Origin: an uncultured Candidatus Saccharibacteria bacterium | Lineage (GTDB): Bacteria; Patescibacteriota; Saccharimonadia; Saccharimonadales; Saccharimonadaceae | Length of the DNA stretch: 64,000 nucleotides | NCBI GenBank assembly: GCA_964402815.1 | Contig: CAYODP010000001.1 | Location: 415-64,414, forward strand | Reading direction: 5' to 3' | In this document: positions 10,598 through 50,783 of the stretch, piece by piece | Layout of the letters: every line of letters starts with the position of its first letter | How positions within the stretch are numbered: position 1 is the stretch's first letter | Notes under the pieces: generated by a model | What the model was told of the DNA's origin: nothing | Database searches by the model: none | What the model saw: the letters and a program-made list of their open reading frames with translations, nothing else | Translations under genes and position numbers: made by a program

Positions 10598-10623
10598 GTA
10601 GAAAACTATGTTATAATAATCTC

Positions 10624-12699
10624 ATGGTTAAAAACCACGCAAATAAAACTGCGAAACAATTCAATAATGATGAGGTAGCGACAAAGCCGGAGCTTTCGCA
10701 AGAAGAAGCAACGACTGCGTCAAAAACCGTAACGTTGGACTCACAAACCAAGACGCAACGGCTGTTTTTGTTGCGTAAACCACGTTCGCGTCGGTACAAC
10801 ACGCGAGGTAAACATCCGATGCCGGTGTTTTTGCGAGTGCCGTGTGCGATTTTGTTCTTACTGGTAATTTCGATTTTCTTGACTTGGTTTATCTTCTGGC
10901 AGCAGAATTTGCGTGATGCCGAAGCAGCGTGGGAGTTCGTACAAGATAAACCGATTTTGGCGGTATATAGCTGCGTGGTAGTATTCTGCTTGTTGACGAC
11001 GATAGCAGCGATTACTTGGCGACCGTTCTTTAGTGCGGGATTATTGTTTTGTGTAGTAAGTATTCTAACCTTTGCACACATTCAGAAATACACCGTGCGC
11101 GCGGCGCCGCTATTGCCAGAAGATTTAGCCATGGCGGAATCGGCGGGAAATTTGATAGATTTTGTAGATTCAGACGAGCTGACGAGACTGATTGCGGGAG
11201 TGATTTTCGTACTGGTGGGTTCGATTTTGCTGGAGTTTTATATGCGTAAGCTAATTGGCAGAAATCCGCGCCGACTACCGTGGTGGAGTAAAATTTCGTT
11301 AATTCCCCGTTTGACTTATTCGATGCTGGCTTTAGCTTTGATGGCGATGGTTACAGGACCAATAATTCATCGCCGCGGAACGGATTGGCTAGAAGGGCTG
11401 GAATTTGTGGCCTGGAGCCAGACTGATAATTATAAATTCAATGGTTTCGTGATTGGGTTTTTGTATAATTTGGGACATTCGGAGCTAGAAGCGCCAGAAG
11501 ATTATAGCGAGGCGCGAATGATGGAAATTGCCGAGAAATATCGCCAAAAACAAAAAGAAGACACCGAGCGCAAGGCGTGGGATAAGACGATAGATAATTT
11601 GGTAATAATTTTGGCAGAAACTTTTTATGAGCCGGCATTTTTGTCAAAATATTATGACCATTATGGGGGCGATATCACACCAAACTTGCATCAATTATTT
11701 AGAGAATACCCGAGCGGCTACATGTATTCACCGGAATATGGCGGCGGGACGGCCAATGTGGAATTTGAGGTGCAGACAGGCTTGTCAAATTTCTGGGCAA
11801 ATACCTTCCCTTATGTGAACGCGTTGACGCGGCTTGATAAAGTTTTGAGCGCAGCAGAGTGGGGTAAAGAGAAATATGATTTTTCAGCACTAGGACTGCA
11901 CTCTTATGACGGTACGATGTATAAGCGCAACATTGTCTACCCCAAGATGGGTTACGACCGGCTGATTGATGCTAGCGAAATGACTTACACGGAGCGGGAA
12001 TATTATAGCTCAGTAATAAATGACCGTTCGATTTACAAGGAGGTTTTGGATTTGCTGAAAGATTCGGACCAGCCACAAGTGCTTGGCGTGGTGACGATGC
12101 AGAATCACGGGCCTTACGAACAGTCGTATTACCCGAAGCTAGAGTTTCCGCTCAAAGAGGCTGACCCGACTGTAAACCGGTTTGCGATTGAGTCGAGCTA
12201 TCAGAGTCTGCATGAATCCGACCGGTATCTGAGAGAATTTCTGGATGAAATAGACCAAATGGAGGAGCGGACCGCCGTGCTCTGGTTTGGCGACCATGCG
12301 ATGGGGACGCTCGATAAGTATATTTACGCCGAGGACAAAAGCGAGCGCGATTTGGCGCATCTGACGCCGTATTTTGTGTATGCGAATTTTGAGATTGAAA
12401 GCCTTTACACCGTGCAAGAAGTAGCGGAGATGAACGCCGAACAAGGATTTGAGTACCGGACGCGCGGGGTGGATTTGCCGACGACTTCGCCGAACTGTCT
12501 GCTGAATACAGCTTATAATATTCTCCAGATTGAGAAGCCGGCGCTATTCTATCTGGTGGACGAAGTTTGTATGCAGACGCCGATTCTGACACATCCGTAT
12601 TACGGTACCGAGGAGCCAGTGAACAGTCCAGAGCTGCACGAGTACGAGCTAGTGAACTATGATGTGCTGAACGGTAAACATTATTGGGATGGCAAGTAG
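10624..12699 (+). CDS. LTA-synthase-family (sulfatase-fold) membrane phosphotransferase
   Basis: Five N-terminal TM segments, then ILAETF, GGGTANVEFEV (catalytic Thr position), TMQNHGPY and WFGDH. Confidence 0.85.
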   Translation: MVKNHANKTAKQFNNDEVATKPELSQEEATTASKTVTLDSQTKTQRLFLLRKPRSRRYNTRGKHPMPVFLRVPCAILFLLVISIFLTWFIFWQQNLRDAEAAWEFVQDKPILAVYSCVVVFCLLTTIAAITWRPFFSAGLLFCVVSILTFAHIQKYTVRAAPLLPEDLAMAESAGNLIDFVDSDELTRLIAGVIFVLVGSILLEFYMRKLIGRNPRRLPWWSKISLIPRLTYSMLALALMAMVTGPIIHRRGTDWLEGLEFVAWSQTDNYKFNGFVIGFLYNLGHSELEAPEDYSEARMMEIAEKYRQKQKEDTERKAWDKTIDNLVIILAETFYEPAFLSKYYDHYGGDITPNLHQLFREYPSGYMYSPEYGGGTANVEFEVQTGLSNFWANTFPYVNALTRLDKVLSAAEWGKEKYDFSALGLHSYDGTMYKRNIVYPKMGYDRLIDASEMTYTEREYYSSVINDRSIYKEVLDLLKDSDQPQVLGVVTMQNHGPYEQSYYPKLEFPLKEADPTVNRFAIESSYQSLHESDRYLREFLDEIDQMEERTAVLWFGDHAMGTLDKYIYAEDKSERDLAHLTPYFVYANFEIESLYTVQEVAEMNAEQGFEYRTRGVDLPTTSPNCLLNTAYNILQIEKPALFYLVDEVCMQTPILTHPYYGTEEPVNSPELHEYELVNYDVLNGKHYWDGK

Positions 12700-37157: not shown

Positions 37158-38096
37158 TTAAAAGACTTGCGGTTTCTGGCGACGGCGATGACGCGCGGCA
37201 AGAATAATCCAAAGAATAGCCAAAGCGAGTAAAACCAGGAGCGAAATCAGCAACCAGCTGGGGCAAAAGATGACAATGCGTTCTTCATTAACTTCACTAT
37301 CGAGGAAACGAATAGTCTGACGTACGCGATAAACGCCAAGGCGGGGTGAATTTTCCCAAGTGATGACGTTTTGGCGCGAGGTGCCGGGTAGAATGACCGT
37401 ACTGGACGAGCCAATATTAGCGCTGCTAGAATCTCGAGTGTCAGGATTGATGATTTCCTCGCCAGTGAGTAAGTTGGTAATGGTAACAGCATGATAAACT
37501 TTGAAATCAACATTACCGGTATTGTAAGTAGTCTCGGAAATCTGGAGGTCACCATCAATAATAAAACCCGGAATGAGCTGTTCAACAACTTCTCCAGACG
37601 GATTAATCTCCGCGCCATTGATGCGACCATAAAGAATGCTGGCAACTTGCGAAATCACCTGCAAAGACGAGCCTTCTTGTTTGCTATCTTCAGTACGTGC
37701 CATAATTGCGGCGTATTGGCCACCACCTACGACATCTTCGGGGACGTGGACAGTATAGCTGACATCTACTGAAGTATCGGGCTCAAGATAGTAAGATTCT
37801 TCGGCAAAAGTAATCCAGCTAGACAGGCGGGTGTAGATATTCTCGGTCGAAAAATCTGGATCGTAAGTTTCGCTATCAACTTGAAAAGGCATGGCGGACA
37901 TTTTGGCGGTGAAAGGTTTTTTACCGTTGTTGGCAAGCTTTACGGTACCGGAATATTCTTGGCCAGGATTGAGCTCGATAGTCTGAGTGGCTGGGTAAAT
38001 GGTCATCACAATATCGTCATCGCTAGATGCCGAAGCAGGTTGGGCAAAACTGCCCAACCCAAGCAAGAATGTCAAAATAATAAGAAACTTTTTCAT
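37158..38096 (-). CDS. DUF916/DUF3324-like membrane-anchored surface protein, copy 1
   Basis: Signal peptide MKKFLII..., IYPATQTIELNPGQEYSGTVKLANNG, GGQYAAIM, NTGNVDF, C-terminal TM and RHRRRQK tail. Confidence 0.75.
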   Translation of the reverse strand: MKKFLIILTFLLGLGSFAQPASASSDDDIVMTIYPATQTIELNPGQEYSGTVKLANNGKKPFTAKMSAMPFQVDSETYDPDFSTENIYTRLSSWITFAEESYYLEPDTSVDVSYTVHVPEDVVGGGQYAAIMARTEDSKQEGSSLQVISQVASILYGRINGAEINPSGEVVEQLIPGFIIDGDLQISETTYNTGNVDFKVYHAVTITNLLTGEEIINPDTRDSSSANIGSSSTVILPGTSRQNVITWENSPRLGVYRVRQTIRFLDSEVNEERIVIFCPSWLLISLLVLLALAILWIILAARHRRRQKPQVF

Positions 38097-38097
38097 C

Positions 38098-38631
38098 CTA
38101 AGGCGCAACTGCAGCGGTTACAGTAATATCAGTGGAGTAAGAACCGGCTGGAAGGATAGGAGAGATACGAACACCAACGTTAAAATCGGTTACACTACCA
38201 CCGTTCTCACTCGGCGCAGCGCTCGTATAGAAGACAGCTGGGGCTGTACCGATGGCAGTATAAGCAGATTCGCCAATTTTCTGAATGCCCCAGGTATTAT
38301 TAACGGTGGCGTCGCCAGCGTTAATGGTATCGGTGATATCGGCAGCACTCAACGCAGGCTGTTCGGCACTGAGCGAGATGGTATATTTGCTACCAGACGA
38401 AACCGTGGCCGAAAGTGTGCCGTTGGCAATGTCAGAGGGCTTAGCGGTAATCTCGGTAGCGCTAACGTTAGAAAGAGTGAGCGCATTCTCCACAGTAAGA
38501 CTAAACTTAGTCCGACCAGTGACAGGAGCGACGTCTGCAGCCGAAACATTAGAAGTAATTGTGGTGAGTGTTACCGCAAGTGCTACTAAAAGGCTGCCTG
38601 ATACGAAAAGTTTTTTGACGATACTTTCCAT
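38098..38631 (-). CDS. Small secreted WxL/pilin-like beta-sandwich protein
   Basis: Signal peptide; Ser/Thr/Val-rich alternating beta pattern; NTWGIQK; ends AGSYSTDITVTAAV. Confidence 0.75.
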   Translation of the reverse strand: MESIVKKLFVSGSLLVALAVTLTTITSNVSAADVAPVTGRTKFSLTVENALTLSNVSATEITAKPSDIANGTLSATVSSGSKYTISLSAEQPALSAADITDTINAGDATVNNTWGIQKIGESAYTAIGTAPAVFYTSAAPSENGGSVTDFNVGVRISPILPAGSYSTDITVTAAVAP

Positions 38632-38785
38632 AATATTAATATCCTATTATTTGTTTCTATTTATTATTTTGACCTTATGTAGTTTTATTGTACTAAACAC
38701 TCATGGTTTTGGCAAGAGGTTTTGGCGATTTTTATGGAAAATTTTGGACTGATAGAGATTGTGAGTAGGATTCACAATTTTGCTA

Positions 38786-38814
38786 TTGACAAAATGCTTA
38801 TGGTATGCTAGAAT
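38786..38814 (+). promoter_or_regulatory. Consensus promoter with no clear downstream CDS
   Basis: TTGACA-17 nt-(TGC)TAGAAT. Confidence 0.65.
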
Positions 38815-38996
38815 GTAGACATAGCTCTGCTAACGAGTGTTGTGTTGATTTTGTTATTCCCTATTTAGAGGTAACAGATAGTCTATATATTAAGTTTAAA
38901 TATGGTTACGTAGGAGCTGCTTACATTGTTTATACTGGCGGGCTTGGGCGCCTTTGGTTTATGGGATTGAGCCTTTCTTCATGTGAAAGTTCAATA

Positions 38997-39026
38997 AAAA
39001 AATAAGCTCCATTGGGGCTTGTTTTC
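38997..39026. terminator. Bidirectional terminator just outside the left att site
   Basis: AAAAAAATAAGCTCC-ATT-GGGGCTTGTTTT; on the minus strand it follows the duplicated tRNA 3' end. Confidence 0.65.
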
Positions 39027-39027
39027 G

Positions 39028-39043
39028 TTTGGTGCGCCCAACT
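39028..39043. repeat. Left attachment site (duplicated tRNA-Leu 3' end)
   Basis: TTTGGTGCGCCCAACT is 14/16 identical to TTTGGTGTGCCCGACT at 50693-50708. Confidence 0.75.
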
Positions 39044-39111
39044 TCGTCAGGTTATTACCACGTTTAAGGAGGGCTAGTTGTATTATTGGAACTTTATGAT
39101 ATAATGTTGAT

Positions 39112-39963
39112 ATGATAGAGTTTTGGGGCTTCATTAGAGATACTTTCTTATTGAAAGCATGGTTTACGCCACTCGCACTGATTATTGGCGGTATATGGGC
39201 ACTGTTCCTTTTTCGGTCATCAAATAAGCATGAACGTGATAATAACGAATTGCTAAATCAACCTAGGTTTAAGTTCTTCGACTCAATGAATTGTCATAGC
39301 GAGATTAAACGATCGTGCGATACGCCAGAAAGCACCTGTCGACCAATGCCAGATTGTTGTTGTAATCCAGAGTGTGATAAAGTTCATTGGTTCGATATAA
39401 AAAATGATGGTAATTTTCCTGCAGAGCAGATTACTATTTCGATGGTCTTAGAAGGTGAGAAGGACTTTAGAGCTAAATTAGCCGAGAGAGTAATGGGTGT
39501 TAAGCACCTACAAGCGCAGGAGTCCTTACAATACAGTATAAATGCCAGTAGTCTCCCTTCTATATTCTATAACGCAAAAGCCATAGGATACAACTATCGT
39601 TTCTATGTTTTGTTGCAGTATCGTTCTGGCTACTCGAAGTACTGGTACAGACGAGTTTATCAGATTGACGCGAGCAAAATATCTAGAGAGATACAGTCGG
39701 AAAGATATGACGGTAAAGACGCGCCAAAGTCAGTATGGGCACGAGGAATAGAATTTTATGGCATGAGCGAGCAAGATTGCAAATGTCAAAAAGATGTTTC
39801 TATACTACGGGGTTTTGGCGCATATAGAAAAAGAAGACAGCAAGATACAATAGAGCAGTATGCTAATAATTGGGTTAATGATTTCTATGAAGTAAGTAAA
39901 CTCGGACATCTTATCGGTCGCATAGGGCGAAGATTCTCTCGACATAAGTGGTGGATGCTTTAA
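39112..39963 (+). CDS. Hypothetical protein with N-terminal TM and Cys-rich segment
   Basis: 283 aa; TATAAT 6 nt before the ATG; CH..KRSC..PESTC..MPDCCCNPEC cluster. Confidence 0.75.
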   Translation: MIEFWGFIRDTFLLKAWFTPLALIIGGIWALFLFRSSNKHERDNNELLNQPRFKFFDSMNCHSEIKRSCDTPESTCRPMPDCCCNPECDKVHWFDIKNDGNFPAEQITISMVLEGEKDFRAKLAERVMGVKHLQAQESLQYSINASSLPSIFYNAKAIGYNYRFYVLLQYRSGYSKYWYRRVYQIDASKISREIQSERYDGKDAPKSVWARGIEFYGMSEQDCKCQKDVSILRGFGAYRKRRQQDTIEQYANNWVNDFYEVSKLGHLIGRIGRRFSRHKWWML

Positions 39964-39987
39964 TCCAGCACTGAGGCGGTACAACAT

Positions 39988-41376
39988 ATGCCATGCAAAA
40001 TAGATTTAACTGGCCAGAAAGCTGGAACTCTAACTGCTAAAGAGTATATTGGTAATAGTAAATGGCGGTGCATCTGTAATGTGTGCGGAAACGAAGTAAT
40101 CATAAATACTGATTGGTTTAGAAAACTTGATAGGCTTGGTAGGGGTGGGTGTAAACATGTTAAACCAGTATCAGTTGGTAATAGGTATGGCTACCTCACT
40201 GTCATTGGCTCAGCCGAGGATTATATTAAACCGAAATCTGGTGCTCATGAGCGACAATGGCTTTGTCAATGCGTATGCGGTAGAGAGAAAGTTATTCTCG
40301 AAGATAATCTCAAATCTAACAAAAGTATGACTTGCGGAATGTGTAGTACGCAAGTTTCTATTCCAGAGAAAGCGATACTTTTTTATTTAAGGAAGGTATT
40401 TAATGAAGTCATTGAAAATTATAGACCTGATTTTTTAGATGGCAGAGAGATTGACATATACATACCTGTAATCAAGCTGGGAGTTGAGTATGATGGCGAA
40501 AGGTGGCATTCTGACATTAATAAGGATCTTCGTAAAGATGAGGAGTGTAAGTTGCATGGGGTAAGAATAGTTAGGATTCGAGAGCCAAATTGCCCAATGA
40601 TGCCAGATGCAATTATTACACCTAAGCCAATCATGAATGGTAACCATATGACCGCACCAATAAAGACCCTCCTCGAAATAATCGAAAAAGATTATAAGAT
40701 AAAGACTTGTATAAATGTGGACTGTTGTAGAGATAATGCAGAAATCTGCAAAACTCTTACAGCTGGCACAAATAGCAGATCTTTAGCCGAACTTAGCCCT
40801 GATATTGCAAGAGAATGGGACTATGATAAAAATTACCCATTAACACCAAATGAAATAGCCAATCGAGCAGGTAGGAAAGTCTGGTGGCGTTGCTCTCAGG
40901 GGCATAGCTATAGCTCTGTCGTAGCTTCTCGAACAGGCAAAAATGCTTGTGGATGTCCAATCTGTGCTGGCGTGGGATCTAGTACTTATAAAAATGGGAA
41001 ATACCTAGGGGAGCATTCTCTCGCGAAAGAATGTCCTGACGTAGCCGCAGAATTTATGGAAGCAAAAAATGGAGTAACTGCAAGCAATATATCAGTATCA
41101 AGCAATAAGAAAATGTGGTTTAAGTGTTCAAAGTGCGGTCACGAATGGCAATCTAAAGTAAATAATAGGACTTCTTCAAACAAACAGGGATGTCCCATAT
41201 GCGGCAGAGAGAAAGTGAGGCTAAGCCGTTGTAATCCAGTTCTATGTATAGAAACGGGTGAGCTATATGAAAGCATAACGGATGCGCAGAGGAAAACTGG
41301 CATAAATAATATATCTGCTTGTTGTGGGGGACGACTAAATACTGCGGGTGGATATCATTGGAAATATGCCGATTAG
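39988..41376 (+). CDS. Multi-zinc-ribbon nuclease-like protein (Vsr/DUF559-like PD-(D/E)xK core, DUF4379-type repeats, NUMOD1-like tail)
   Basis: KIDLTG...KWRCICNVCG repeats; EIDIYIP..KLGVEYDGERWH; two SLA...P.IA.EW...VWW.C...H...RT...CPIC repeats; PVLCIETGELYESITDA...NISACC...TAGGYHW. Confidence 0.8.
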   Translation: MPCKIDLTGQKAGTLTAKEYIGNSKWRCICNVCGNEVIINTDWFRKLDRLGRGGCKHVKPVSVGNRYGYLTVIGSAEDYIKPKSGAHERQWLCQCVCGREKVILEDNLKSNKSMTCGMCSTQVSIPEKAILFYLRKVFNEVIENYRPDFLDGREIDIYIPVIKLGVEYDGERWHSDINKDLRKDEECKLHGVRIVRIREPNCPMMPDAIITPKPIMNGNHMTAPIKTLLEIIEKDYKIKTCINVDCCRDNAEICKTLTAGTNSRSLAELSPDIAREWDYDKNYPLTPNEIANRAGRKVWWRCSQGHSYSSVVASRTGKNACGCPICAGVGSSTYKNGKYLGEHSLAKECPDVAAEFMEAKNGVTASNISVSSNKKMWFKCSKCGHEWQSKVNNRTSSNKQGCPICGREKVRLSRCNPVLCIETGELYESITDAQRKTGINNISACCGGRLNTAGGYHWKYAD

Positions 41377-41403
41377 TGCTATTGTATTTTTACTTCGGCT
41401 ATT

Positions 41404-41715
41404 CTAATCTGTAATATGTAAGTAGTATTTCAAGTTTTCGCCCTTCCAATTATCTAATACCCACCCATGATATTCTTCCCATAACTCTGCATATAGTTTG
41501 CCATATTTATCGCCAAGTTTGGAACGAGGCTCACTATACCAATACCAGCATTTATGGTTAAGTACCATTGAGAGTTCTGTTCCATATATACGATTATCTT
41601 TCCACTCAGCTTTAGCTCTTTCGTAAGTATCTCGTATGGTTTCCACTCCGAAACGGTCAGCTATATCGAAGTCTTCCCAAAAGGTAGTCTGACACTCATA
41701 ATCTAACAAACGCAT
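41404..41715 (-). CDS. Hypothetical phage/MGE-type protein
   Basis: 103 aa, Trp/Tyr-rich (TTFWEDFDIADRFG...NHKCWYWY); overlaps the upstream gene's stop, as in an operon. Confidence 0.7.
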   Translation of the reverse strand: MRLLDYECQTTFWEDFDIADRFGVETIRDTYERAKAEWKDNRIYGTELSMVLNHKCWYWYSEPRSKLGDKYGKLYAELWEEYHGWVLDNWKGENLKYYLHITD

Positions 41716-41936
41716 TTCTTATACTTCCGCATAAAACTATCGACCGTACCATATTCTGTTTCAATATAGCGCTTATAAGTATCATAATTGAGCATAATAT
41801 CTCGGTATTCTCGGCTGGTAATGCCACAAGCCTTAATCGCTTTATAGGCTTCCATAATCATATTATATCTACCACTTCTACGAACTTCCTCGTACTTGTA
41901 AAAGTTAGGCTTCCAGTTCTCATTTATCAAAGTCAT
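41703..41936 (-). CDS. Small hypothetical protein (weak DUF5049-like V..SG.YNM motif)
   Basis: 77 aa; abuts its neighbours; motif YEEVRRSGRYNMI. Confidence 0.6.
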   Translation of the reverse strand: MTLINENWKPNFYKYEEVRRSGRYNMIMEAYKAIKACGITSREYRDIMLNYDTYKRYIETEYGTVDSFMRKYKKCVC

Positions 41937-42215
41937 CTAAGGTTCCACCTCACAATTACTCGACGTTCTCGTCCATATATGCTCGACAATCTCACCGTCA
42001 GCCCAAAGTTTATATTCCAATTGACTCAAGTAGTTCAGTCTATCTTCAAGACTTGGGAACATTGTATCGTCCACCATCACAAAGTGATGCTCTCCATCTG
42101 TACCTAGATATTTCATAACCGTAATTGACTTTGGAGATAAATGTTTCATAACAACAATTATTGTTAGAAATACGTAAAAAGTAAATGACAAAAATATAGC
42201 CTCTAAGTTCAACAC
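41937..42215 (-). CDS. Small hypothetical protein, paralog of 43618..43857
   Basis: SPKSITVMKYLGTDGEHHF matches SENSVTIMKYKSPDGVYDF; the true start may be the downstream Met (MKHLSP). Confidence 0.6.
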   Translation of the reverse strand: MLNLEAIFLSFTFYVFLTIIVVMKHLSPKSITVMKYLGTDGEHHFVMVDDTMFPSLEDRLNYLSQLEYKLWADGEIVEHIWTRTSSNCEVEP

Positions 42216-42285
42216 TTAAAGGCTGTTATTGCTCAGACTTAAAACTTTTCCACTAACTGCCGTTTAGCCGAGGTGGCGTTGTGAA

Positions 42286-42312
42286 CTAGCACTCACTATT
42301 GACGAGTGCTAT
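42286..42312. promoter_or_regulatory. CIRCE-like inverted repeat (HrcA operator consensus)
   Basis: CTAGCACTC-ACTATTGAC-GAGTGCTAT versus the consensus TTAGCACTC-N9-GAGTGCTAA: exact 9-nt spacer and 8/9 per arm. Confidence 0.7.
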
Positions 42313-42327
42313 AATGGGGGCTATAAT
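42299..42327 (+). promoter_or_regulatory. Sigma70 promoter overlapped by the CIRCE-like repeat
   Basis: TTGACG-17 nt-TATAAT; the ATG at 42334 lies at the expected transcription start. Confidence 0.75.
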
Positions 42328-42333
42328 GTGGAT

Positions 42334-42909
42334 ATGAATACCGATAGTTTAATTACTTTTTTCCAAAAAAAGATTGCCGAGATTGATAAGCTGAATGGCT
42401 TAGGTTTAGATAATGCGGAGTTTCAAAAATGGCATGCGGCTATATTGGCTACTTGCAAACGCATGGGCGGAGACTATGCGTCGAGATTTGACGAAATTAG
42501 CTATATGCCAGCAGTGTGGACTATTGATGGCGACAACAGTGAACTCTTTGCTTATGCATACGACAAAGGGCTATTAAGTGCAAAAGCGCTGCTTGAAGCT
42601 TTTGTAGAAGAACTTGAAACTTGGGGATACGATGGCGACTCCAAGGCAGAAAAATCAAAAGTCGCAAAGAGTCAACAACCAGCCGTTAACGTAAATGTCT
42701 CGCAAAATCAGACTCAATCTCAGTCCATATCCACCTCAATCAATCTTTCAGCCTACAATGAAGAAACGCAAGAAAAACTCAAGGAGCTTGCCGAGGAGAT
42801 TCGTAAACCAAATAATCGCAGCAAGGTCACTTCAATTATTAAATGGCTAGCAGACAAAAGTGCTGACGCGCTCATTGCCCTTCTGCCGACAATGATTAAA
42901 TTTGAGTAA
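42334..42909 (+). CDS. Hypothetical helical protein, first gene of a two-gene operon
   Basis: ORF track starts at GTG 42328, but ATG 42334 fits the promoter; Q/S/N-rich linker; its stop overlaps the next start. Confidence 0.75.
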   Translation: MNTDSLITFFQKKIAEIDKLNGLGLDNAEFQKWHAAILATCKRMGGDYASRFDEISYMPAVWTIDGDNSELFAYAYDKGLLSAKALLEAFVEELETWGYDGDSKAEKSKVAKSQQPAVNVNVSQNQTQSQSISTSINLSAYNEETQEKLKELAEEIRKPNNRSKVTSIIKWLADKSADALIALLPTMIKFE

Positions 42910-43582
42910 GTTACGCATGATAAGTGCTTCAATGAAACGCAGCCATGATAGTGACACAAATCAAACAAAAGAAAAACTACTAGATTTTGTATCTAAATCT
43001 ACAAAGAAAAGTGTTTGCCATGATGCTGACCAGCTCCTAGAGCTATATGACGCATATGATGCCGCCTATATAGCGGCTACTGAGTATTTTATCTACTATT
43101 GTATTATCGCCGCTCCAAGCGTAGCTGATTATTTCAATGCGGCAGACGGTGGTCGGACTTGGCAATTTATCGGTGATGCCATATTTGACGAGGGCGTAAA
43201 TGCTTTATGGCAGTTTTTTGATCGGAGCGGTTTAAATATAATTCAAAGATTCGATAGAGCTTTTGGTACAAAAATCGGTAATCTCATTCAAGATGAGAGA
43301 ATAAAGGAGCTTAAAGAATATCGTCATAAACGTGCCGCCCATCGTAACAAAAATATTCATGAGAAAACTAATATACGTTACGAAACACCAATTCACGTGT
43401 TAGACAAGTTAAGGGTGGTCAAAACGAAATTTGATAATGAGGCAGGTTTGGCTCAATCGATTTATATGCTTGATATCGAAAACTCATGCGTGATGAGGAT
43501 TGCTTGGATACTCAATGATCTAAAGATACCAGAGAATATGTCCGAAAAAATATTGAAAGAAATTCACGACTTATGTTCGTAA
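42902..43582 (+). CDS. HEPN-like protein (AbiU2-like)
   Basis: Helical 226 aa with ELKEYRHKRAAH (R-x5-H, at 43322-43342); upstream DEG..ALWQFFD pattern. Confidence 0.55.
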   Translation: MSKLRMISASMKRSHDSDTNQTKEKLLDFVSKSTKKSVCHDADQLLELYDAYDAAYIAATEYFIYYCIIAAPSVADYFNAADGGRTWQFIGDAIFDEGVNALWQFFDRSGLNIIQRFDRAFGTKIGNLIQDERIKELKEYRHKRAAHRNKNIHEKTNIRYETPIHVLDKLRVVKTKFDNEAGLAQSIYMLDIENSCVMRIAWILNDLKIPENMSEKILKEIHDLCS

Positions 43583-43617
43583 AGTAGATGTCTAAATATG
43601 CAATAGATAAGTGCTTA

Positions 43618-43857
43618 TCATAAATCAAATATCGGCAAAGTCTTAATCCATAAAACTTCGTAGCCCTCAGCCTCTATTCTCTGCTTCTCTTTAATCATAG
43701 CATCTAGCCGCTCCACCTCGTCCGCTACGTTCCACTTATCAAGACACTTGAAGTCATATACTCCATCTGGAGACTTATACTTCATAATAGTGACACTATT
43801 TTCGCTCGCTGGGTTCATGCTGTCTCCTCTCTTCCACTTTTCGTTTGTGTTCTTCAA
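43618..43857 (-). CDS. Small hypothetical protein, paralog of 41937..42215
   Basis: See paralog; probable start MNPASEN. Confidence 0.6.
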   Translation of the reverse strand: MKNTNEKWKRGDSMNPASENSVTIMKYKSPDGVYDFKCLDKWNVADEVERLDAMIKEKQRIEAEGYEVLWIKTLPIFDL

Positions 43858-44236
43858 ATCTTTTCTTGTCTAGTTGCCTAAACTGTTCCCAAACCACTCT
43901 TCGCTCATCGCCCTCCAATAACCTACTTCCGTCCATACTAACTTCAAAAACTGAGGAGCTATTGCTGTCGTGATCCATGCGACTAGACTGCTCGGCATAC
44001 AAAACGAGATGATTACCAACTTTCCCCAAAAAGTAATCAAACCCACCAAACATTCCCAGAATGGTAATATGCTGACCATTCTCCCATCCTAGCAAACTTT
44101 CGTCAATCTTTGGGAACTCAAAATCAGGGTTTTCATCTAAGTACTTGTCAAAGTCACAAAACTTACACCGTTCAATAATCAGCTTCCTAAAGTTTTGCTC
44201 TAGTTTATTCAAACTGTTTGTGTTATTTTCCGCCAT
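43796..44236 (-). CDS. Hypothetical protein
   Basis: 146 aa; GMFGGFDY...LYAEQSSR...FEVSMDGSRLL core followed by a charged helix. Confidence 0.7.
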   Translation of the reverse strand: MAENNTNSLNKLEQNFRKLIIERCKFCDFDKYLDENPDFEFPKIDESLLGWENGQHITILGMFGGFDYFLGKVGNHLVLYAEQSSRMDHDSNSSSVFEVSMDGSRLLEGDERRVVWEQFRQLDKKRFEEHKRKVEERRQHEPSERK

Positions 44237-44253
44237 GGTTTTCTAATCCTATT

Positions 44254-45033
44254 TTACCATCTCCCACAACTTAGACCATACTGAGCGCACTTTGCTTCGT
44301 CAAGAGCAAGACCAGCACTTACGACTGCCTCCCAAGTTATCGGTGCCGAACCCATACCGAGGCAGTCCATGGTATTATAGCCCTTCGAGTTGGCATAATT
44401 CATATACTGTTTTCCCATCGAGACATTCCATAAATCATCGCCTTGACCAGTAAATTTCGCAATGCCAAAGAAAGATTTTTCCTCAGCAACTACACATTGC
44501 CCATTCTCGTCCAGCGTCCAAAATGGATAGGACTTAGTGCCAGCCACATACTTATCATTGAGATTATAATCAGGCTTTTTAGCTGGTTGCGTAGGCTGAG
44601 ATGGTTGGCTTGGAGCGGAGGGCTGGCTGGGTTGAGAGGGCTGGGTAGTAGGAGTGCTTGGTTTAGAGGAGGAAGCATTACTTGACTGATTATTAAGAGC
44701 CGAACTATTATTTAGCTTTTGCGTAGTAGTCTGTGAGTTATTAGCCGTCGACTTACCATCTTCACCCGCCTGCTCGGTTTTGTTATTATCGTCCTCAGAC
44801 TCTACAGTCTCTCCAATTTGCGTATCTTTCTGCTCGAATGGGGAGTTGTCGTCATCGGAATTATTAGCGACAATTTGTGTCTCCTCGTGTGGCTGATTAG
44901 CATTTATAATTGCCACCGTTCCGGCAGTGCCGCCTGCCACGACCGCAACCGCTCCGACTCCAAGACCTACCTTTGCGGCGAGACTCGCACCCTTAATGGT
45001 AGTTATTATAGAGGTAAAACTTATCATATTCAT
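44254..45033 (-). CDS. Membrane-anchored low-complexity surface protein
   Basis: N-terminal Gly/Ala/Val TM, acidic/Ser/Asn-rich stalk, QPS repeats, Cys-containing C-terminal domain; AAGGAG RBS. Confidence 0.8.
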   Translation of the reverse strand: MNMISFTSIITTIKGASLAAKVGLGVGAVAVVAGGTAGTVAIINANQPHEETQIVANNSDDDNSPFEQKDTQIGETVESEDDNNKTEQAGEDGKSTANNSQTTTQKLNNSSALNNQSSNASSSKPSTPTTQPSQPSQPSAPSQPSQPTQPAKKPDYNLNDKYVAGTKSYPFWTLDENGQCVVAEEKSFFGIAKFTGQGDDLWNVSMGKQYMNYANSKGYNTMDCLGMGSAPITWEAVVSAGLALDEAKCAQYGLSCGRW

Positions 45034-45079
45034 ACTCCTTGCCTTGAATTATGGGACTTTTGCGGAAAAATATAAACCC

Positions 45080-45970
45080 CTAATTTGCGTTGTAGCCGTA
45101 ATCTCCACGAGTTAGCAAGATATTCTTCCACCAAGACTCTCTCGCAATAATTGCCTCGTCATCGGTCGTAGATTTATAAATGTCGAGGATTGAATAACGG
45201 AAGTTATTCTTCACATATTCTAAGCCGTTTTCTTCAACTAAGGCTTTCAGCTCCTTGTTGTGGCCATGACCATTTTCAGCATAATTTCGCCACCTGCCGA
45301 GCAACATAGTATCACCATAAGCCGAACCGACATAACGTTTATTAGTAGCAGTATCGGTTATGAGATAGACTGCTTTTTGGTTTTCTAGTGCTGTCTGCCA
45401 ATTCTTGAACTTCAGAACTCTACGCAGATCGTTCCACGACAAATCAACATTCTCATAGCCCGGAAAATCTTCACCAAGTTCATTGTAGGGGTGTTCGAGA
45501 ATGGTTTTAACATATATGGAGTCAATAATATCTTCACTACGCACTACCACATTTCTGCCTTTGTCTTCAAAATGTACCACTAGCCGACCAAAGAATGGAG
45601 CATACTCAGCAAGGTTCTCCTCATCAGCGTCAATCAAAAACTTACTATCGTCCAGTACCTTATAGGCATTTACAAGCAACCAGTCTTTATCGGAAGAATA
45701 TGGAATAAAACAAAATACAATATCACCATTCTTAAACCGTTTATAGCCGTCTGGGTTATGTGTCTTGACCGACTCTTCCACAACGGCAACCTCGCCAGAA
45801 CGATACATAGCAAGCAAATCAAAATATCTCGGCTGATCGCCAAGTTTTTCTACAACCTCAGGAGCCTGTTTTTCTGCGTCATACTGCCAATTGCTGTTGA
45901 AGACGAGTTTAAGTTTACCCATATCTTCGTCTGATAGGTGGAGTAAACTGGTGAATTTAATAGTGCTCAT
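45080..45970 (-). CDS. GIY-YIG nuclease family protein
   Basis: AVYLITD...KRYVGSAYG...LGRW.NY...GHG.N.EL...FRYSIL...ARESWWK.IL..R..GYNAN. Confidence 0.85.
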   Translation of the reverse strand: MSTIKFTSLLHLSDEDMGKLKLVFNSNWQYDAEKQAPEVVEKLGDQPRYFDLLAMYRSGEVAVVEESVKTHNPDGYKRFKNGDIVFCFIPYSSDKDWLLVNAYKVLDDSKFLIDADEENLAEYAPFFGRLVVHFEDKGRNVVVRSEDIIDSIYVKTILEHPYNELGEDFPGYENVDLSWNDLRRVLKFKNWQTALENQKAVYLITDTATNKRYVGSAYGDTMLLGRWRNYAENGHGHNKELKALVEENGLEYVKNNFRYSILDIYKSTTDDEAIIARESWWKNILLTRGDYGYNAN

Positions 45971-46002
45971 TTTTTGCTTGCCCTTTCCGGTCGCCTGATA
46001 AC

Positions 46003-46141
46003 AAAAAATGCGACCATGTACTTAGTCGCTTTAACCTTAACAAAACCAGTTCTAGGAACGATTTTGCGTACATAGCCGCATTTCTTCCTAGAACCTACGG
46101 CAAAACTACCGTTGGTTGTTCGGTTTTATTAAGATTAAAGC
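46003..46141 (-). ncRNA. Structured RNA or terminated leader upstream of the GIY-YIG gene
   Basis: Minus-strand 20-bp stem 46141-46122 / 46047-46028 (with G:U) enclosing hairpins ACGG/CCGT and GTTCTAGGAA/TTCCTAGAAC; terminator GCGAC-10-GTCGC-ATTTTTT; extended -10 TGGTATAAT at 46148-46156. Confidence 0.6.
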
Positions 46142-46607
46142 AATTCTATTATACCACATTACGCCACAAAAGAGAAGATGGTTTACTTGCTCTGAAATAG
46201 GTTGAAGCTGACTTCTAGATGATAAGAACAAACGCTAAATCGCAAAAACGCAAATTTCTTTGCCAAATTATTCAAAATATTACATTGGGTATATACAATG
46301 TACAAAAGTACGGCATTATATCATACATCACGAAAAAAGAAAAATTGACAGCAAGCACCTAACGTGGCATTCTTTACTTTAAATATATAGTGCCTTACAA
46401 TAGAGGTAAGCTAAAGGTAAAACCGCATCTGCCTAAGTGAAATGTCGAGGAGATGGCTGAGAAAATCACCTTTAGATAATTGGGAGTTTAACCAGCGCGA
46501 GGCTGCGTGAAATAAAAAGCGCTCAGTAAAAACAATACTAAAGTTGTATTAGAACAGCTCATTGTTTTTGATGCATAAAAGCATGATGATAAGGAGGTAT
46601 ATTTTTC

Positions 46608-46910
46608 ATGCCCAAAAAACAGGACGAACCGCAAAAAATCAGAACATACAAAGAATTATCGCAAAAGGAGCAACCTTTTGCGGGCTTCAAAACTGGCGAG
46701 CAATTGCCACTCTTTGAGATGCCACCAGCTTTGGCAAGCCCAGCTATCAGCCAAGGCTTGCCAAAGCTGCAGCAGCTACTCTCTGAGCAAGGTATTGAAA
46801 TTGGCAGTTTTGATGAACTTTACACCGCTGCAATCAGTATTATTCGTTTCGTAGCGGCTAAGGAGAAGCAGGCAATTTTAAAGAATATCGAGGAGAAAAG
46901 GCATGAATAA
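46608..46910 (+). CDS. Small hypothetical protein preceding the helicase
   Basis: AAGGAGG RBS; overlaps the start of the next gene. Confidence 0.75.
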   Translation: MPKKQDEPQKIRTYKELSQKEQPFAGFKTGEQLPLFEMPPALASPAISQGLPKLQQLLSEQGIEIGSFDELYTAAISIIRFVAAKEKQAILKNIEEKRHE

Positions 46911-48885
46911 TACAAAACAATCCCTAGTAAAACTTGTGGTGAATCGCATTATCAATGATTCGTCCATTAGGCTTTTTACTGACCAAAATAATGAGGCGTA
47001 TATCTCCACAACTGGCGATGGTAGGCAAGTATATGATCTGGATTCACAAGAGGCTCAAGATTGGCTTGCTGGTTATGTTATGGATAACTTTAATAACGAG
47101 GTTTTATTGCGTGACCAACCTAAAAATATTTTAGAAACCCTGCGAGGTTTCGCACAACATCGTGGTAGTAAAAGAAATCTTGAGTTGCGAACTGCTTTTG
47201 ATGAAAACCAAAATCTTTGGTACGATTTGGGTCAATACGCTGTGCGCATTACACCTGATGGCTGGAAGATTGACGCTTGCCCGCCCATTCTTTTCGCTCG
47301 TAACTATACTCAAGAACAACAAGTATTGCCAGTAACTGGCGGAACAATTTGGGAGTTGTTTGATTACATTAATGTTAAAGATGTTCAGGACCGAGTATTG
47401 CTAATTGCCTTTTTAATCGCTGCGTTAGTGCCAGGCATCAACAAGCCGATCCTAGCATTATCAGGTCCAGCAGGCAGTGGCAAAAGTGAGTGCACAAAGA
47501 CGCTAAAAAGCCTCATGGACCCAACAATGCCACCAAGTTTGCCGCCAATTACCAACGTCGAAGAATTAGATAAACTCGCTCAAACTAGCGCCGTCATGGC
47601 CTTTGACAATCTTACAACCATGAACACAAAAATCGCCAATCACTTCTGTTGTCTAGCAACAGGTTACGGTGTGCGCATTAGAAAACTATATACTCAACGC
47701 TACATTATTTTCAACGCTATTCGTCCGCTAATTATCAATGGTATATCTCAGGTTATTACTCAATCCGATCTGCTCAATCGTGCCATAGTAGCCGAACTAT
47801 CACCAATCGAGAAGCGTGTAGAAGATTCCGAATTGCATAAGAGATTCAATGAAGCTCGTCCGCGTATCCTAGGCGCTATGTTCGAGTTGCTGTCTAGGGC
47901 AATGAAAATCCTACCCACTATCGAACGTACTGAGTGGCCGAGGATGGGTGGGTTTGCTAAGTGGGGCTATGCCATCACGGCGGCACTAGGCAATGGCTAT
48001 ACTGGTGAAACGTTCATGAAAGCGTTTAAGAAGGTAGAAGCCTTGCAACACAGTGAGGCGTTGAGCGCTAACCCATTTGCAGAAGTAATCACTTGGTTTA
48101 TGCGTGACCGAGAAACATGGGTTGGAACTGCTGGGGAGCTCCTAGACAAGTTAGAGTCCGTATCACAGAATAGTAGTAACCCAGATATTAAGTACTGCCC
48201 AAAAAGCTCATATTGGCCAGCTAATCCTAGGTCTGCCAGGGTCCAGATTCAAAAAGCCCTAGCGGATCTAAAGTCAGCGGGAATTATCGCTTTTCTACCA
48301 AGCGGGAGTGGGCGTACTATTCGTCTAGTAAATGCTGATCTTCCTATTAGTAAAACACTACGTAGCGCTTTAGATAGTCCATCCCCAAATGGCCACACTT
48401 ATACTGAACAGGGTTATGTTTTGAATGACTTAGAACCGCATTGTGTCGGCGTAGTATCTAGCAAATACACCAATCTTGATGAAAGGGGTGAACTGGTCCT
48501 TAAAGATGAAGTAATGTCTGGGAAAATTATTCCCGAAATTATTACAGGTGATACTGCTGATGCTCCGAGCGTTAGTGGTATAGCAGATTTCATTGAACGC
48601 CTTGTTGAGTATAAATTGCCCAAGACCGAGAAACGTCTTGAAATTGAAACACAGCAACGTGAAGAAAAAGAGCATGAGAGAAAAGCCCAACTTGAAGAAA
48701 AACGGAAACATGACAAGGAATATCAAGAGGAGTGTAAACGCAGACAAAAAGAACAGGAGGAGAAAGAAGCTAATAGGAAGCAGAAAAAGGCGAAGTATCT
48801 AGCTGATTGCGAGAAGTATGGTATGCCAGTGAATGAAGACTATCTTGCGTACGTTGAGAGTGGCTGGGGTGAAATCCCATTCTAG
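46903..48885 (+). CDS. P-loop NTPase, putative replicative helicase of the element
   Basis: Walker A LSGPAGSGKS, AFDNLT (Walker B-like), R.LYT, IINGI, DLLNRAIV; charged coiled-coil C-terminus. Confidence 0.8.
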   Translation: MNNTKQSLVKLVVNRIINDSSIRLFTDQNNEAYISTTGDGRQVYDLDSQEAQDWLAGYVMDNFNNEVLLRDQPKNILETLRGFAQHRGSKRNLELRTAFDENQNLWYDLGQYAVRITPDGWKIDACPPILFARNYTQEQQVLPVTGGTIWELFDYINVKDVQDRVLLIAFLIAALVPGINKPILALSGPAGSGKSECTKTLKSLMDPTMPPSLPPITNVEELDKLAQTSAVMAFDNLTTMNTKIANHFCCLATGYGVRIRKLYTQRYIIFNAIRPLIINGISQVITQSDLLNRAIVAELSPIEKRVEDSELHKRFNEARPRILGAMFELLSRAMKILPTIERTEWPRMGGFAKWGYAITAALGNGYTGETFMKAFKKVEALQHSEALSANPFAEVITWFMRDRETWVGTAGELLDKLESVSQNSSNPDIKYCPKSSYWPANPRSARVQIQKALADLKSAGIIAFLPSGSGRTIRLVNADLPISKTLRSALDSPSPNGHTYTEQGYVLNDLEPHCVGVVSSKYTNLDERGELVLKDEVMSGKIIPEIITGDTADAPSVSGIADFIERLVEYKLPKTEKRLEIETQQREEKEHERKAQLEEKRKHDKEYQEECKRRQKEQEEKEANRKQKKAKYLADCEKYGMPVNEDYLAYVESGWGEIPF

Positions 48886-48957
48886 TGAAGCATGCCGACA
48901 TAATAAACCATTTATTTTTATCACAGAAACTCACATAATTGTCAATAGGAGGAAGAA

Positions 48958-50721
48958 ATGTCAAGAAAGCAAGTGAAATACAAAAAGCAGGCTACGAGTA
49001 GCGACGAATTGCGCTTTGTCGCTTATATGCGTAAGTCAACTGAAGACAAGAATCACCAAATGAACTCAATCGTCGACCAACAAACATGGATTACGCGAGA
49101 GGCAAGAAAACTAGGGCTAAAGATAGTGGCAGTTTTTCAAGAAGAGAAATCTGCCTCTAAGCCTAAGAATCGCCCAGAATTCGATAAAATGATGAAAATG
49201 CTAGAGGCAGGCAGGGCAAATGCTATTATTTGTTACCACGTAGACCGCTTATCGCGAAACCCAATCGACAATGGACGATTACAATGGGATGTAGCTAATG
49301 GCACTATTCAAAAAATTCATGCTTCGGACGGAGATTATACGAATGGTGATAATAGCAACTTCATGTTTGCGTTGCAAAACTGCCTAGCGACAGACTATTC
49401 TCAAAAGCTAAAGAGCCGCGTGCACTATACTATGATGGAGAACAATAGGCGGGGTCGTTGTAATGGACGTGCTGCGCAGGGATATCTTAATAGGCACGAC
49501 CCAAATAACCTGAAAAGAGCCATCGTCATAAAGGATACGAGTATTGTGGGCAAAAACGGAGAGAGTCGTTACGACCTAATTCGTAAAGCCCTCAAGATGT
49601 TTGGCACTGGAAATTATAGTCCTGTAGAAATTAAACAAATGCTTGATGATTGGGGTTATACTCAGCGACGTACTCACAAAGGTTTAACTCTTGGTGGACT
49701 ACATTATATTCTAGAAAATCCATTTTACGCAGGCTACACCGAAGACCCAGAAGACCCCGATGTCTGGCATAAGGCGGAGTGGGAGCCCATGATTAGTGAG
49801 CAGGAATACTGGCGTAACCAGAAGATTAAGCAAAGCTATGGCCGAAAAACAGGAAAACATTGCCCCCGCCCTAGAATTTCGGCTCGTGCCTATAAGTTTC
49901 AACTCAAAGGTGTAATCACGTGCTCTAGTTGCGGTTGTGGCATTGGTGCTGGTTATCACCCAAAAATTATGGCGGATGGTTCTACGAAAATCTATGTCCA
50001 CTATGCCTGCAATAATAATGGCCATAATTCTCTCAGAAAATGTCAACTACATGGCGGTATTAGCGAGCCAGCACTATTTGCTCAAGTAGACGCATTACTT
50101 AACAAATATCGAATCAGCCGAACGCTCTATGAATGGGCATTAGAAATTCTTGGCAAATTAAAGGATGAAGAAATTTACGAAAGGCACAGTATTGAAATGA
50201 GCCAGAATGCCAGCGTTGAACGTTTAAAAGCAAAGCGCGATAGGCTACTTGATATGTAGCTAGAACATGAAGAAGACGGAATTGAAATGACCGCTGAAGA
50301 ATACAATACGCGCCGACAAAAACTGGATTCCGCCATCACCGAATTAGAACAATCCAGACGCGACGTTGTCGATAGGAACCAAAATTGGTATGAAATTATT
50401 GGTAAGACTTTAGAAACGTTAAATGATCCACGCGAAAAATTTACCGATGGCAGTTGTTCCGGAGAAAGACGTAGTATTCTACAATCAATCGGTCCACGTG
50501 CCTACCTCGTGGAATGCTTCGACCGTTACAGTAAGAAAGGTAAGGTTTTAACCAAACGAGTTCTAGAGGTGGAGCCTTATCCGTGGCTCGAAAAATTGCG
50601 AAAATCAGCACAAAAAATGGAACACGATTTCGGGAAGGTTTTTACCGCAAACCAACAGGGGCAAAATGACCAAAAATCGGCTCCTTATAAACTTTGGTGT
50701 GCCCGACTAGACTTGAACTAG
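48958..50721 (+). pseudogene. Large serine recombinase (integrase) interrupted by an in-frame TAG at 50257-50259
   Basis: Catalytic YMRKST (Ser), SASK...RPEF..M, DRLSRN, recombinase domain (NPFYAG), zinc ribbon CSSCG...YACN...C. The same frame continues after TAG (LEHEEDGIEMTAEEY...) to 50721. Confidence 0.85.
50693..50708. repeat. Right attachment site within the tRNA-Leu 3' end
   Basis: TTTGGTGTGCCCGACT, matching 39028-39043. Confidence 0.75.
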
Positions 50722-50783
50722 CACAGCTTAAAATCGCCACTACCACCTCAAGGTAGCGTGTCTACCAATTCCACCACGGGCAC
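50695..50783 (-). tRNA. tRNA-Leu (anticodon GAG)
   Basis: Acceptor GTGCCCG/CGGGCAC-A-CCA; D loop GGAATTGGTAGAC; anticodon stem CTACC-TTGAGGT-GGTAG; long variable arm; T arm GTTCAAGTC. Confidence 0.95.

Follow-up and report, generated by a model that had tools for sequence, protein, structure and literature searches.

A Saccharibacteria island at a tRNA-Leu gene and an integrase family whose attP probably straddles the 3' end of its own gene

The window analysed here, a 64,000-nt stretch of contig CAYODP010000001.1 (assembly GCA_964402815.1) from an uncultured Candidatus Saccharibacteria of the rodent gut, carries an 11.7-kb mobile island at the CCA end of a tRNA-Leu gene; all positions are counted from the start of the window. 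The right end of the island is formed by a broken gene for a large serine recombinase (LSR; 48958-50721, plus strand, 587 codons), whose last nine codons, stop included, run over the tRNA's 3' end in antisense. ARAGORN recognised a single tRNA gene in the whole window: tRNA-Leu(GAG), minus strand, 50695-50783, which is intact, has a perfect 7-bp acceptor stem and makes up the B' arm of the right attachment (att) site, attR. The attR core TTTGGTG lies at 50693-50699 (plus strand), and its TGG at 50695-50697 is at once codon Trp580 of the integrase and the antisense of the encoded CCA. The same seven nucleotides, the sole block identical between the two ends, recur as the attL core (39028-39034, plus strand), with the crossover placed within TGGT(G) at 39030-39034. 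From 39030 to 39077, also on the plus strand, runs the P' arm of attP, which doubles as the coding sequence of the attP-form integrase tail, WCAQLRQVITTFKEG followed by a stop. Just outside the left site, at 38995-39027 on the minus strand, lies the B arm of attL, the displaced intrinsic terminator of the tRNA-Leu gene: an AAGCCCC-AAT-GGAGCTT hairpin that folds at -7.0 kcal/mol on the tRNA strand and is followed by UUUUUUU. A simple terminator scan passed over this hairpin, which has one stem mismatch; in co-resident strains, unoccupied tRNA-Leu copies show a comparable terminator hairpin abutting ...TTTGGTG (loose ends), the same architecture as the left flank of the window.

An initial annotation, made from the letters of the window, had proposed an LSR element targeting a tRNA 3' end, with an att core inside the integrase frame, a frame that runs through the right site into the antisense tRNA and has its counterpart in the same register at the left site, and the original tRNA terminator beyond the left site. 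Translation, ARAGORN, Pfam domains and the related loci described below reproduce each of these features. The 16-mer TTTGGTGTGCCCGACT at 50693-50708 has a single other match with at most two mismatches in the 64 kb, TTTGGTGCGCCCAACT at 39028-39043 (14/16); in shuffled sequence such matches averaged 0.04 and none of 100 shuffles reached two, so the match is unlikely to be coincidental. A generic repeat finder left the repeat unranked, its exact seed being just 7 nt. G+C content is 0.38-0.45 across 39-51 kb against mostly 0.47-0.55 upstream, the dip coinciding with both sites, and strain-to-strain homology stops exactly at the CCA end of the tRNA.

The LSR frame at 48958-50721 translates to a protein ending in ...SAPYKLWCARLDLN, with one in-frame TAG, and its C-terminus reads ...SAPYKL-W-CARLDLN before the stop. 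Pfam assigns it the Resolvase, Recombinase and Zn_ribbon_recom layout: the catalytic domain matches PF00239 at 2.2e-22 over residues 21-167, PF07508 lies above its cut-off, and PF13408 falls below its cut-off in the window copy and is recorded for most homologues. In an alignment of 18 sequences Y23, R25, K26, S27, Q34, R97 and R100 are invariant, and the R-x-S (R25, S27) and DRLSR motifs of LSRs are present. No Phage_integrase match was found on the element's open reading frames (ORFs) searched with Pfam, which leaves the serine enzyme as the sole recombinase. The in-frame TAG is codon 434 (50257-50259, plus strand), in the coiled-coil region; the codon is TGG (Trp) in homologues 92-97% identical, whose genes are intact, and the TAG base is shared by contigs of eight sequencing runs holding the window strain. 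Recoding of TAG was considered and rejected, as TAG ends 16 of the 47 long ORFs in the window and is an ordinary stop. Judged by its reading frame, the window integrase is a nonsense pseudogene (TGG to TAG), truncated within the coiled-coil region. The element has the depth of its flanks (about 25x), as expected of a single copy, and contigs of the same strain contain no skips or back-joints at the att sites. With codon 434 a TAG, single-copy depth and no circle or empty-site junction, the window copy is taken to be immobile, and since its integrase is dead, nothing switches in it.

Relatives were collected by a search with the read-through protein, which returned 200 sequences, including eleven full-length ones at 60-92% identity. 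About 30 related loci were retrieved and compared, all from Candidatus Saccharibacteria, and in a collection of species-representative genomes all 24 matches were metagenome-assembled genomes of Candidatus Saccharibacteria/Saccharimonadales from animal guts. At every one of the 22 loci whose DNA continues past the integrase, the Trp codon falls exactly on the CCA of a minus-strand tRNA, and twelve target isoacceptors are represented (Leu-GAG, Gln-TTG/CTG, Val-CAC/TAC, Pro-TGG/CGG/GGG, Arg-GCG, Ala-TGC, Ile-TAT and Gly-GCC). The Trp-on-CCA geometry is, on this comparison of sequences, a property of the clade and not an accident of the window, and that clade of integrases belongs to Saccharibacteria, a group within the candidate phyla radiation (CPR). 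Full-length relatives end in Trp followed by two or three residues or by antisense-tRNA strings (RLDSN, RQDSNLR, GSNWRP), and among integrases 92-97% identical to that of the window, residue 582, just right of the core, is A, T or P according to the host tRNA allele. Where the tRNA offers no in-frame stop (P0176, P0177, P0011, P0016, P0031), the ORF crosses the whole antisense tRNA and beyond; this read-through adds 30-60 unselected residues, and gene callers list the products as longer 'isoforms'. A scan of viral contigs with the family alignment yielded just distant LSRs of 24-27% identity with no tRNA nearby.

The related loci also fix where the crossover lies. The left end of the window element, TGGTGCGCCCAACTTCGTCAGGTTATTACC, has counterparts in TGGTGCGCCCAACTTCGTCAAGTTGTTACC, shared by loci L017, L026 and L049, in TGGTGCACCCAACTTCGTCAGGTTGTTACC of L011 and in TGGTCAGCCCTAATACGTCAGGTTGTTACC of L015, an element at tRNA-Pro; these left ends are conserved among elements although the resident tRNAs differ at just these positions. 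When the two copies are compared with the 5' acceptor strand of the host tRNA, the right copy forms seven of seven Watson-Crick pairs at all seven loci examined, while the left copy would mispair at four of them (L015, L017, L035, L036). Since it is the same across elements and mispairs with host acceptor stems, the left copy is read as a P' arm belonging to the element. Over its inner 14 nt it resembles the acceptor strand of the tRNA (12 of 14 positions in the window), an imitation that would make sense were attP and attB bound by a single enzyme. Identity between attL and attR spans 6-10 nt at the seven loci (TTTGGTG, TTGGTGC, AAATGGTCAG, TGGTGCGC, TGGTGCGCCC, TGGTCG and GTGGTCG), and the seven blocks intersect on TGGT(G/C), which corresponds to tRNA positions 72-76, that is position 72, the discriminator and CCA. 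These junctions show the predicted recombination to fall within the last five tRNA positions (antisense TGGT[G/C]), leaving the tRNA intact and severed from its terminator. Such a short identity block is LSR-like, unlike the long tRNA-restoring repeats of tyrosine integrases; the 3' strand of the tRNA is of host origin, and no replacement tRNA 3' segment supplied by the element was found. Two details of the initial annotation give way here: the att site is not a 16-bp duplication, the other 9 nt in the window being attP mimicry of the tRNA, and the compatibility of the mismatches with the acceptor stem through G:U pairs is coincidental, the left copies of related loci giving real acceptor-stem mismatches. 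An inverted repeat in the attP of the window (CTCCTTATAAAC/GTTTAAGGAG) was dropped for want of conservation among other elements; CCTTAT ... GTCAGG, a weaker symmetry with its centre near the step from TGGTG to C, may be real.

The sequence beyond the core at the left end has the character of a protein tail. In the register of the integrase, P' arms other than that of the window encode WCTQLRQVVTTFKEKG, WCALLRQVVTIYKDGNT, WCAQLRQVVTMFKNGNT and WCAQLRQVVTVFKEGL, each ending at a stop, and WSALIRQVVTVYKENSHG... and WCGCLRQVLTIYKKSQ...; those of a subclade of about 40% identity read WLEQIKQALTTYKEDIRQRL... and WWGRIVQALTLYREDLQAKL..., and those of more distant members WYSIINEVRTLV... and WCSIWKKVFTPLE... 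The motif W-x-x-x-[LI]-[RK]-[QE]-[VA]-x-T-x-[FY]-[KRQ] occurs at no fewer than 14 independent left ends. Differences among tails fall mostly at third positions (CGT/CGC/CGG, CAG/CAA, ACC/ACT/ACA, TTT/TTC, AAG/AAA): over codons 5-13 of nine close tails, variable columns number 3, 2 and 8 at codon positions 1, 2 and 3, and in the integrase frame the ratio of nonsynonymous to synonymous variation (pN/pS) comes to 0.27, the other two frames giving 1.05 and 1.48. By this pattern of substitution, the predicted attP-form tail is shown to evolve like protein, under protein-level constraint. The protein motif is kept even where the DNA has diverged, as between CAACTTCGTCAGGTTATT in the window and CAAATTAAGCAGGCTTTA in L028. 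In the 40% subclade, conservation extends at least 20 codons past the Trp, with QALTxY(K/R)ED(I/L)xx(K/R)L, and in some subclades it runs 40-75 nt past the core; known LSR att sites, to judge from a passage of PMC1470463, measure less than 50 bp in all, so this conservation would reach beyond a half-site. At attL, stops close the frame upstream of the Trp codon, where the DNA is that of the host, which leaves the integrase in attP configuration as the sole consistent upstream partner of the tail.

A structural role for the tail is suggested by an AlphaFold2 model of P0028, a natural family member with an attP-type tail. The model has a predicted local distance difference test (pLDDT) score of 81.8, and structures of the full-length phiC31, Bxb1 and LI integrases, LSR-att complexes deposited in the PDB, match it at E values of 1e-19 to 1e-10. 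Paired long helices (365-412 and 418-460) lie inside the zinc-ribbon beta region (strands 310-333 and 483-497), and an additional C-terminal helix-linker-helix follows the zinc ribbon. The last confident helix, 530-549, spans Trp541, so in the model the crossover would split the terminal helix mid-way. The tail thus looks like a genuine structural element of the predicted fold; its end is not ssrA-like and contains no obvious degron. The sequence [KRQ]-V-x-T caps both the terminal helix and the preceding one. In the window it occurs twice, as GKVFTAN about 21 residues before Trp580 (50630-50645) and as RQVITTF in the tail (39045-39060), the DNA of the two forming a direct repeat GGTTnTTACC, and the same pairing is seen in distant members including P0028 and P0039 (EKVRT/YRVRT, SKVET/KKVFT); the pair may reflect duplication of a helix cap or some feature of the DNA.

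Both tail states occur among natural sequences. Within one cluster at 90% identity, P0015 ends in the tRNA-type ...KIWWLRLDLNQ and P0209 in the attP-type ...KTWWGRIGQALTIYEEENRIKL..., and in another P0018 ends in the tRNA-type ...ILWSG and P0231 in the attP-type ...ILWSRLLNEVLTAYLGN...; attP-type tails are also carried by P0028, P0033 and P0039. Two contigs, of 5930 and 5936 nt, from sequencing runs X1 and X27 have an integrase 3' end (..NITKTASYQTW) leading straight into a P' arm identical at 40 of 44 positions to window 39029-39072. They carry the attP-type junction of a related element, and a circle and a tandem array both fit as its source; when they were aligned to L027, the integrase side of the 5.9-kb contig was not recovered, being too divergent. 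In L051 and L052, which have attP-type tails, no terminal overlap was found between the contig ends.

Additionally, several loci record how these elements are arranged on the chromosome. The integrases at L001:10001-11743, L041:~10001-11210 and L053:10001-11761 are not adjacent to a tRNA and take their tail from the P' arm of another element, and in L053 a 1.2-kb CdiA_C toxin cassette separates the integrase from tRNA-Met. Arrays of two to four P' arms without integrases stand upstream of occupied tRNAs (L040:3012, 3522, 4352, 4904; L028:845, 1925), and L028 has a tRNA-Gln 3' fragment at 1847. L049:6339-10437 is a 4-kb decayed derivative with both att ends kept and a helicase fragment fused to a C-terminal fragment of the integrase. 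Elements seem to accrete at one tRNA, repeated integration pushing older, decaying ones outward.

On this evidence, the island at 39028-50699 is best read as an immobilised copy of a family of Saccharibacteria elements, probably self-replicating, in which attP spans the integrase gene's 3' end and integration swaps the tail of the enzyme; a probability of roughly 0.7 can be given to this reading. The P arm encodes ...SAPYKL, the invariant Trp codon is the CCA core, and the P' arm encodes the last 14 or so residues (CAQLRQVITTFKEG); the rejoined attP junction would read ...CCTTATAAnnnnTGGTG joined directly to CGCCCAACTTCGTCAGG. Rejoining would give ...WCAQLRQVITTFKEG, in register at 39030, in place of ...WCARLDLN, as the initial annotation had foreseen; integration exchanges that tail for an antisense-tRNA product whose length, from 2 to more than 40 residues, varies with the host allele. 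The full-length enzyme would be made only where P and P' are joined, in an excised circle or beside the P' arm of another element in a tandem array, and the prophage would make a C-terminally altered isoform lacking half of the terminal helix. We infer that the full-length protein is the form under selection. It would be the integration-competent isoform, with the truncated one attenuated or dependent on a partner for excision, a bias towards stable residence.

In phiC31 and Bxb1 integrases, recombination directionality factors (RDFs) act beside the zinc ribbon, at the coiled-coil base. The swapped helix follows the zinc ribbon, and for this reason the predicted isoforms most likely differ in directionality or activity. 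No candidate RDF was recognised. It is tempting, and at present doubtful, to see in the P'-encoded half-helix a built-in directionality device, by which full-length enzyme made from the circle would carry out attP x attB recombination and the prophage isoform would be excision-competent or locked; if so, the direction of a serine integrase would be set by its own recombination product, without a separate RDF, in a family that, with the universal CCA as its core, would switch readily from one tRNA to another.

Several observations weigh against the main reading. Neither a same-locus empty attB nor a circle junction was seen for the window element or its closest relatives, in a survey of assembled contigs only. 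The readable attP-type tails (L001, L041, L053) are chromosomal, their integrases abutting another element or a remnant and not their own left end, and for that reason they show that the reading frame exists, not that the circle does. Many samples contain integrases that have a tRNA-type tail and are nevertheless unbroken (P0004 in 95 index blocks, P0168 on 76 contigs), so the tail-less form is at least not rapidly lost. The codon test covers nine codons of nine related sequences whose pairs are non-independent, and the P' arm, being a site that protein binds on the DNA as well, must owe some of its conservation to the DNA level. Separately, the attP-junction pattern GCTCCTTATAANNNNTGGTGCRCCCAACTTCGTCA had no match in IMG/VR or JGI metagenome contigs, and exact look-up of two flanking window proteins, in search of empty-site contigs, returned none.

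The strongest rival, unlikely on balance yet deserving serious weight, is that the overlap is a neutral by-product: attP would have come to lie on the end of a compact gene, P' would be conserved for integrase binding and tRNA mimicry, and the two isoforms would be alike, with no switch. This would explain the tRNA likeness of the inner 14 nt, the variation of P' arms with the tRNA targeted, the absence of any sign of selection on tRNA-type tails of 2 to more than 40 residues, and the wide distribution of intact integrases bearing them. Neutral overlap does not predict the third-position bias and low pN/pS in the integrase frame only, the persistence of the motif despite DNA divergence, conservation 40-75 nt past the core, or a tail that completes a confidently predicted helix; these favour an exchanged tail that matters as protein.

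The remaining genes of the island bear on what kind of element it is. The conserved core is a small ORF, a superfamily 3 (SF3) helicase and the LSR, with sizes across related elements of 58-103 aa for the ORF and 539-671 aa for the second protein. Core gene 1 (46608-46910, plus strand) encodes 100 aa with no Pfam, PHROG or NCBIfam family, and a 58-103-aa gene stands directly upstream of the helicase in L003, L011, L014, L015, L017 and L053. Core gene 2 (46903-48885, plus strand) encodes a 660-aa P-loop protein without a family match by sequence; its AlphaFold2 model (pLDDT 89) matches in Foldseek the SaPI5 primase-helicase (7OLA/7OM0, template modelling score 0.57-0.63 on the target), the PrimPol of African swine fever virus, poxvirus D5/E5 and NrS-1 helicases, which points to a replicative helicase of the D5/SaPI5 type and agrees with the helicase call of the initial annotation. 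PrimPol or toprim domains are present in distant homologues, and the excised form could plausibly replicate on its own.

Cargo is variable and consists mostly of predicted defence genes. From the left end, it begins with a Cys-rich 283-aa ORF without a significant family match (39112-39963, plus) and a 462-aa zinc-ribbon protein (39988-41376, plus; Pfam DUF4379, 3.5e-32) resembling HNH/homing endonucleases, with PHROG families of that type down to 3e-24. Three small ORFs of 103, 77 and 92 aa follow on the minus strand (41404-42215; no PADLOC match at 41937-42215), and then a two-gene cassette (42328-43582, plus) encoding a PDC-S35-like protein of 193 aa (PADLOC PDC-S35, 1.5e-07) and a 226-aa protein weakly resembling HEPN/AbiU2 (Pfam HEPN_AbiU2, 0.0069, below the curated cut-off). 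In an element variant from run X2, 42282-43619, which holds this cassette, is replaced by 'CT' (joint from 42281 to 43620), so the cassette is a gain/loss polymorphism of cargo. Three ORFs of 79, 146 and 259 aa without a convincing match lie on the minus strand (43618-45033), the 259-aa product having an N-terminal hydrophobic segment and a P/Q/S-rich middle. Finally, the minus-strand gene at 45080-45970 encodes a GIY-YIG protein like UzuA of the Uzume anti-phage defence family (PADLOC UzuA, 9.9e-47, residues 77-296; Pfam GIY-YIG, 9.3e-05; phrog_26160, 8e-35), a UzuA homologue by these matches and a predicted defence gene. Cargo of relatives includes restriction-modification genes, methyltransferases, and T5orf172 and CdiA_C toxins. 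Altogether, this is probably a small integrative and replicative, defence-carrying element with a tycheposon- or PICI-like layout (PICI, phage-inducible chromosomal island) without packaging genes.

That layout invites a second rival, in which the element is a phage satellite of the PICI type or of the Staphylococcus aureus pathogenicity island (SaPI) type and the integrase layout is secondary to excision and packaging driven by a helper phage. A helicase folding like the SaPI5 primase-helicase, a size of 7-12 kb at a tRNA and the lack of an own capsid or terminase would suit a satellite. The expected satellite genes are missing: as the initial annotation had noted for capsid, terminase and relaxase, the window proteins have no match to capsid, terminase, terS, portal or relaxase families in Pfam, PHROGs and NCBIfam, and neither the window nor about ten related elements inspected contain a packaging gene (terS, capsid or portal homologue), a repressor or a recognisable excisionase. 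Viral contigs give just the distant LSRs already mentioned, and the cargo is defence or toxin genes; a helper-dependent satellite is improbable on these grounds.

Classical tRNA-restoring integration, with the crossover where the 16-bp repeat ends on the right, the tRNA 3' end supplied by the element and the left copy being the displaced original end (TGGTGCGCCCAACT), can draw on the two G:U pairs by which the left copy in the window pairs with the 5' acceptor strand and on a 14/16 repeat unlikely to arise by chance. It is very hard to sustain, given that the left copy is conserved among elements and not among hosts and would mispair in L015, L017, L035 and L036, that pairing between the right copy and the host 5' strand is perfect in every case, and that the recombinase is a serine enzyme. 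The least credible proposal, that the island is not bounded by att sites and a low-GC block arrived otherwise beside a chance 16-bp match, has the weakness of the repeat taken alone in its favour (a 7-nt exact seed, unranked by the repeat finder) and can be set aside in view of the shuffle expectation of 0.04, a GC dip matching both sites, the same left-end sequence at other tRNAs and a break of strain homology at the CCA end.

The left flank of the island has features of its own. Two secreted or cell-surface-type proteins, 316 aa and 177 aa long and both with signal-like N-termini, are encoded at 37158-38631, and related strains have length variants in this interval, with joints that skip 792-812 nt. 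A joint from 38631 to 50694 in contigs of related strains was considered as an empty site and rejected, as it rests on pieces of 31-57 nt with 85% likeness and different flanks. At 38777-38815, a stretch of about 38 nt has a near-consensus promoter (TTGACA, 17 nt, TG-n-TAGAAT) and is found again in four metagenomes, in many contig contexts that are unrelated and with loose ends to either side; these genomes may thus carry it as a repeated promoter cassette.

For inserting large DNA, serine integrases are the principal tools, and the coiled coil and RDF directionality form an active structural topic, judging by 2026 PDB entries. A recombination event that rewrites the C-terminus of its own enzyme would, if the exchanged tail acts as proposed, be a new regulatory principle for them, and a clade anchored on the universal CCA across at least 12 isoacceptors offers a natural series for reprogramming LSR targets. 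These are also abundant native elements of a group with few genetic tools, in which an intact relative with an attP of about 50 bp could serve as an integration vector, and their cargo of restriction-modification, Uzume, toxin and nuclease genes makes them look like a main vehicle of defence-gene exchange in the reduced genomes of Saccharibacteria. A literature search of incomplete coverage found no LSR clade with Trp-on-CCA geometry, no state-dependent integrase tail and no such Saccharibacteria elements.

The window LSR shares the Resolvase, recombinase and zinc-ribbon/coiled-coil layout of phiC31, Bxb1, the Listeria A118-type LI integrase, TP901-1, CcrA/B/C and XisF, and its att sites have the short identity (6-10 nt) of serine integrases. 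tRNA ends are typical targets of tyrosine integrases, serine integrases more commonly using sites in coding regions (PMC6109161). The present family differs from usual serine integrases in targeting the tRNA CCA end and in an attP that overlaps its own stop region, so that the predicted C-terminus depends on the integration state. In mycobacteriophages BPs, Brujita and Charlie and related actinophages, attP is close to a gene's 3' end, and the viral and prophage products of that gene differ at the C-terminus, which constitutes a switch; in this integration-dependent immunity the gene is a repressor, the recombinase a tyrosine integrase and the lost tail an ssrA-like degradation tag (PMC6109161). 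Here, by contrast, attP lies not in a repressor gene but in that of the serine integrase itself, and the tail is a conserved helix. The Int protein of SSV1 is an archaeal tyrosine recombinase with attP in its own ORF and a tRNA target, and its gene is split by integration into two large fragments. The attP within the integrase gene and the tRNA target are shared with the Saccharibacteria elements, whose enzyme is a serine recombinase that exchanges just its last 8-15 codons. Among tycheposon-like elements, 27 of 937 carry a large serine recombinase according to the portion consulted of the preprint (bioRxiv 10.1101/2020.12.28.424599). Prochlorococcus tycheposons and SaPI/PICI islands are likewise small, tRNA-associated and built of an integrase, a primase or helicase and variable adaptive or defence cargo; the present elements differ in their Saccharibacteria host, in the absence of packaging or capsid-redirection genes beside the shared helicase and integrase, and in an integrase/att overlap that the same portion does not describe for tycheposons. 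In Tn4451, with its TnpX recombinase, and in circular forms of insertion sequences (IS) with junction promoters, the joined ends build an expression feature present only in the circle. There a promoter is assembled, whereas in the elements described here the joined ends would assemble the coding C-terminus of the integrase.

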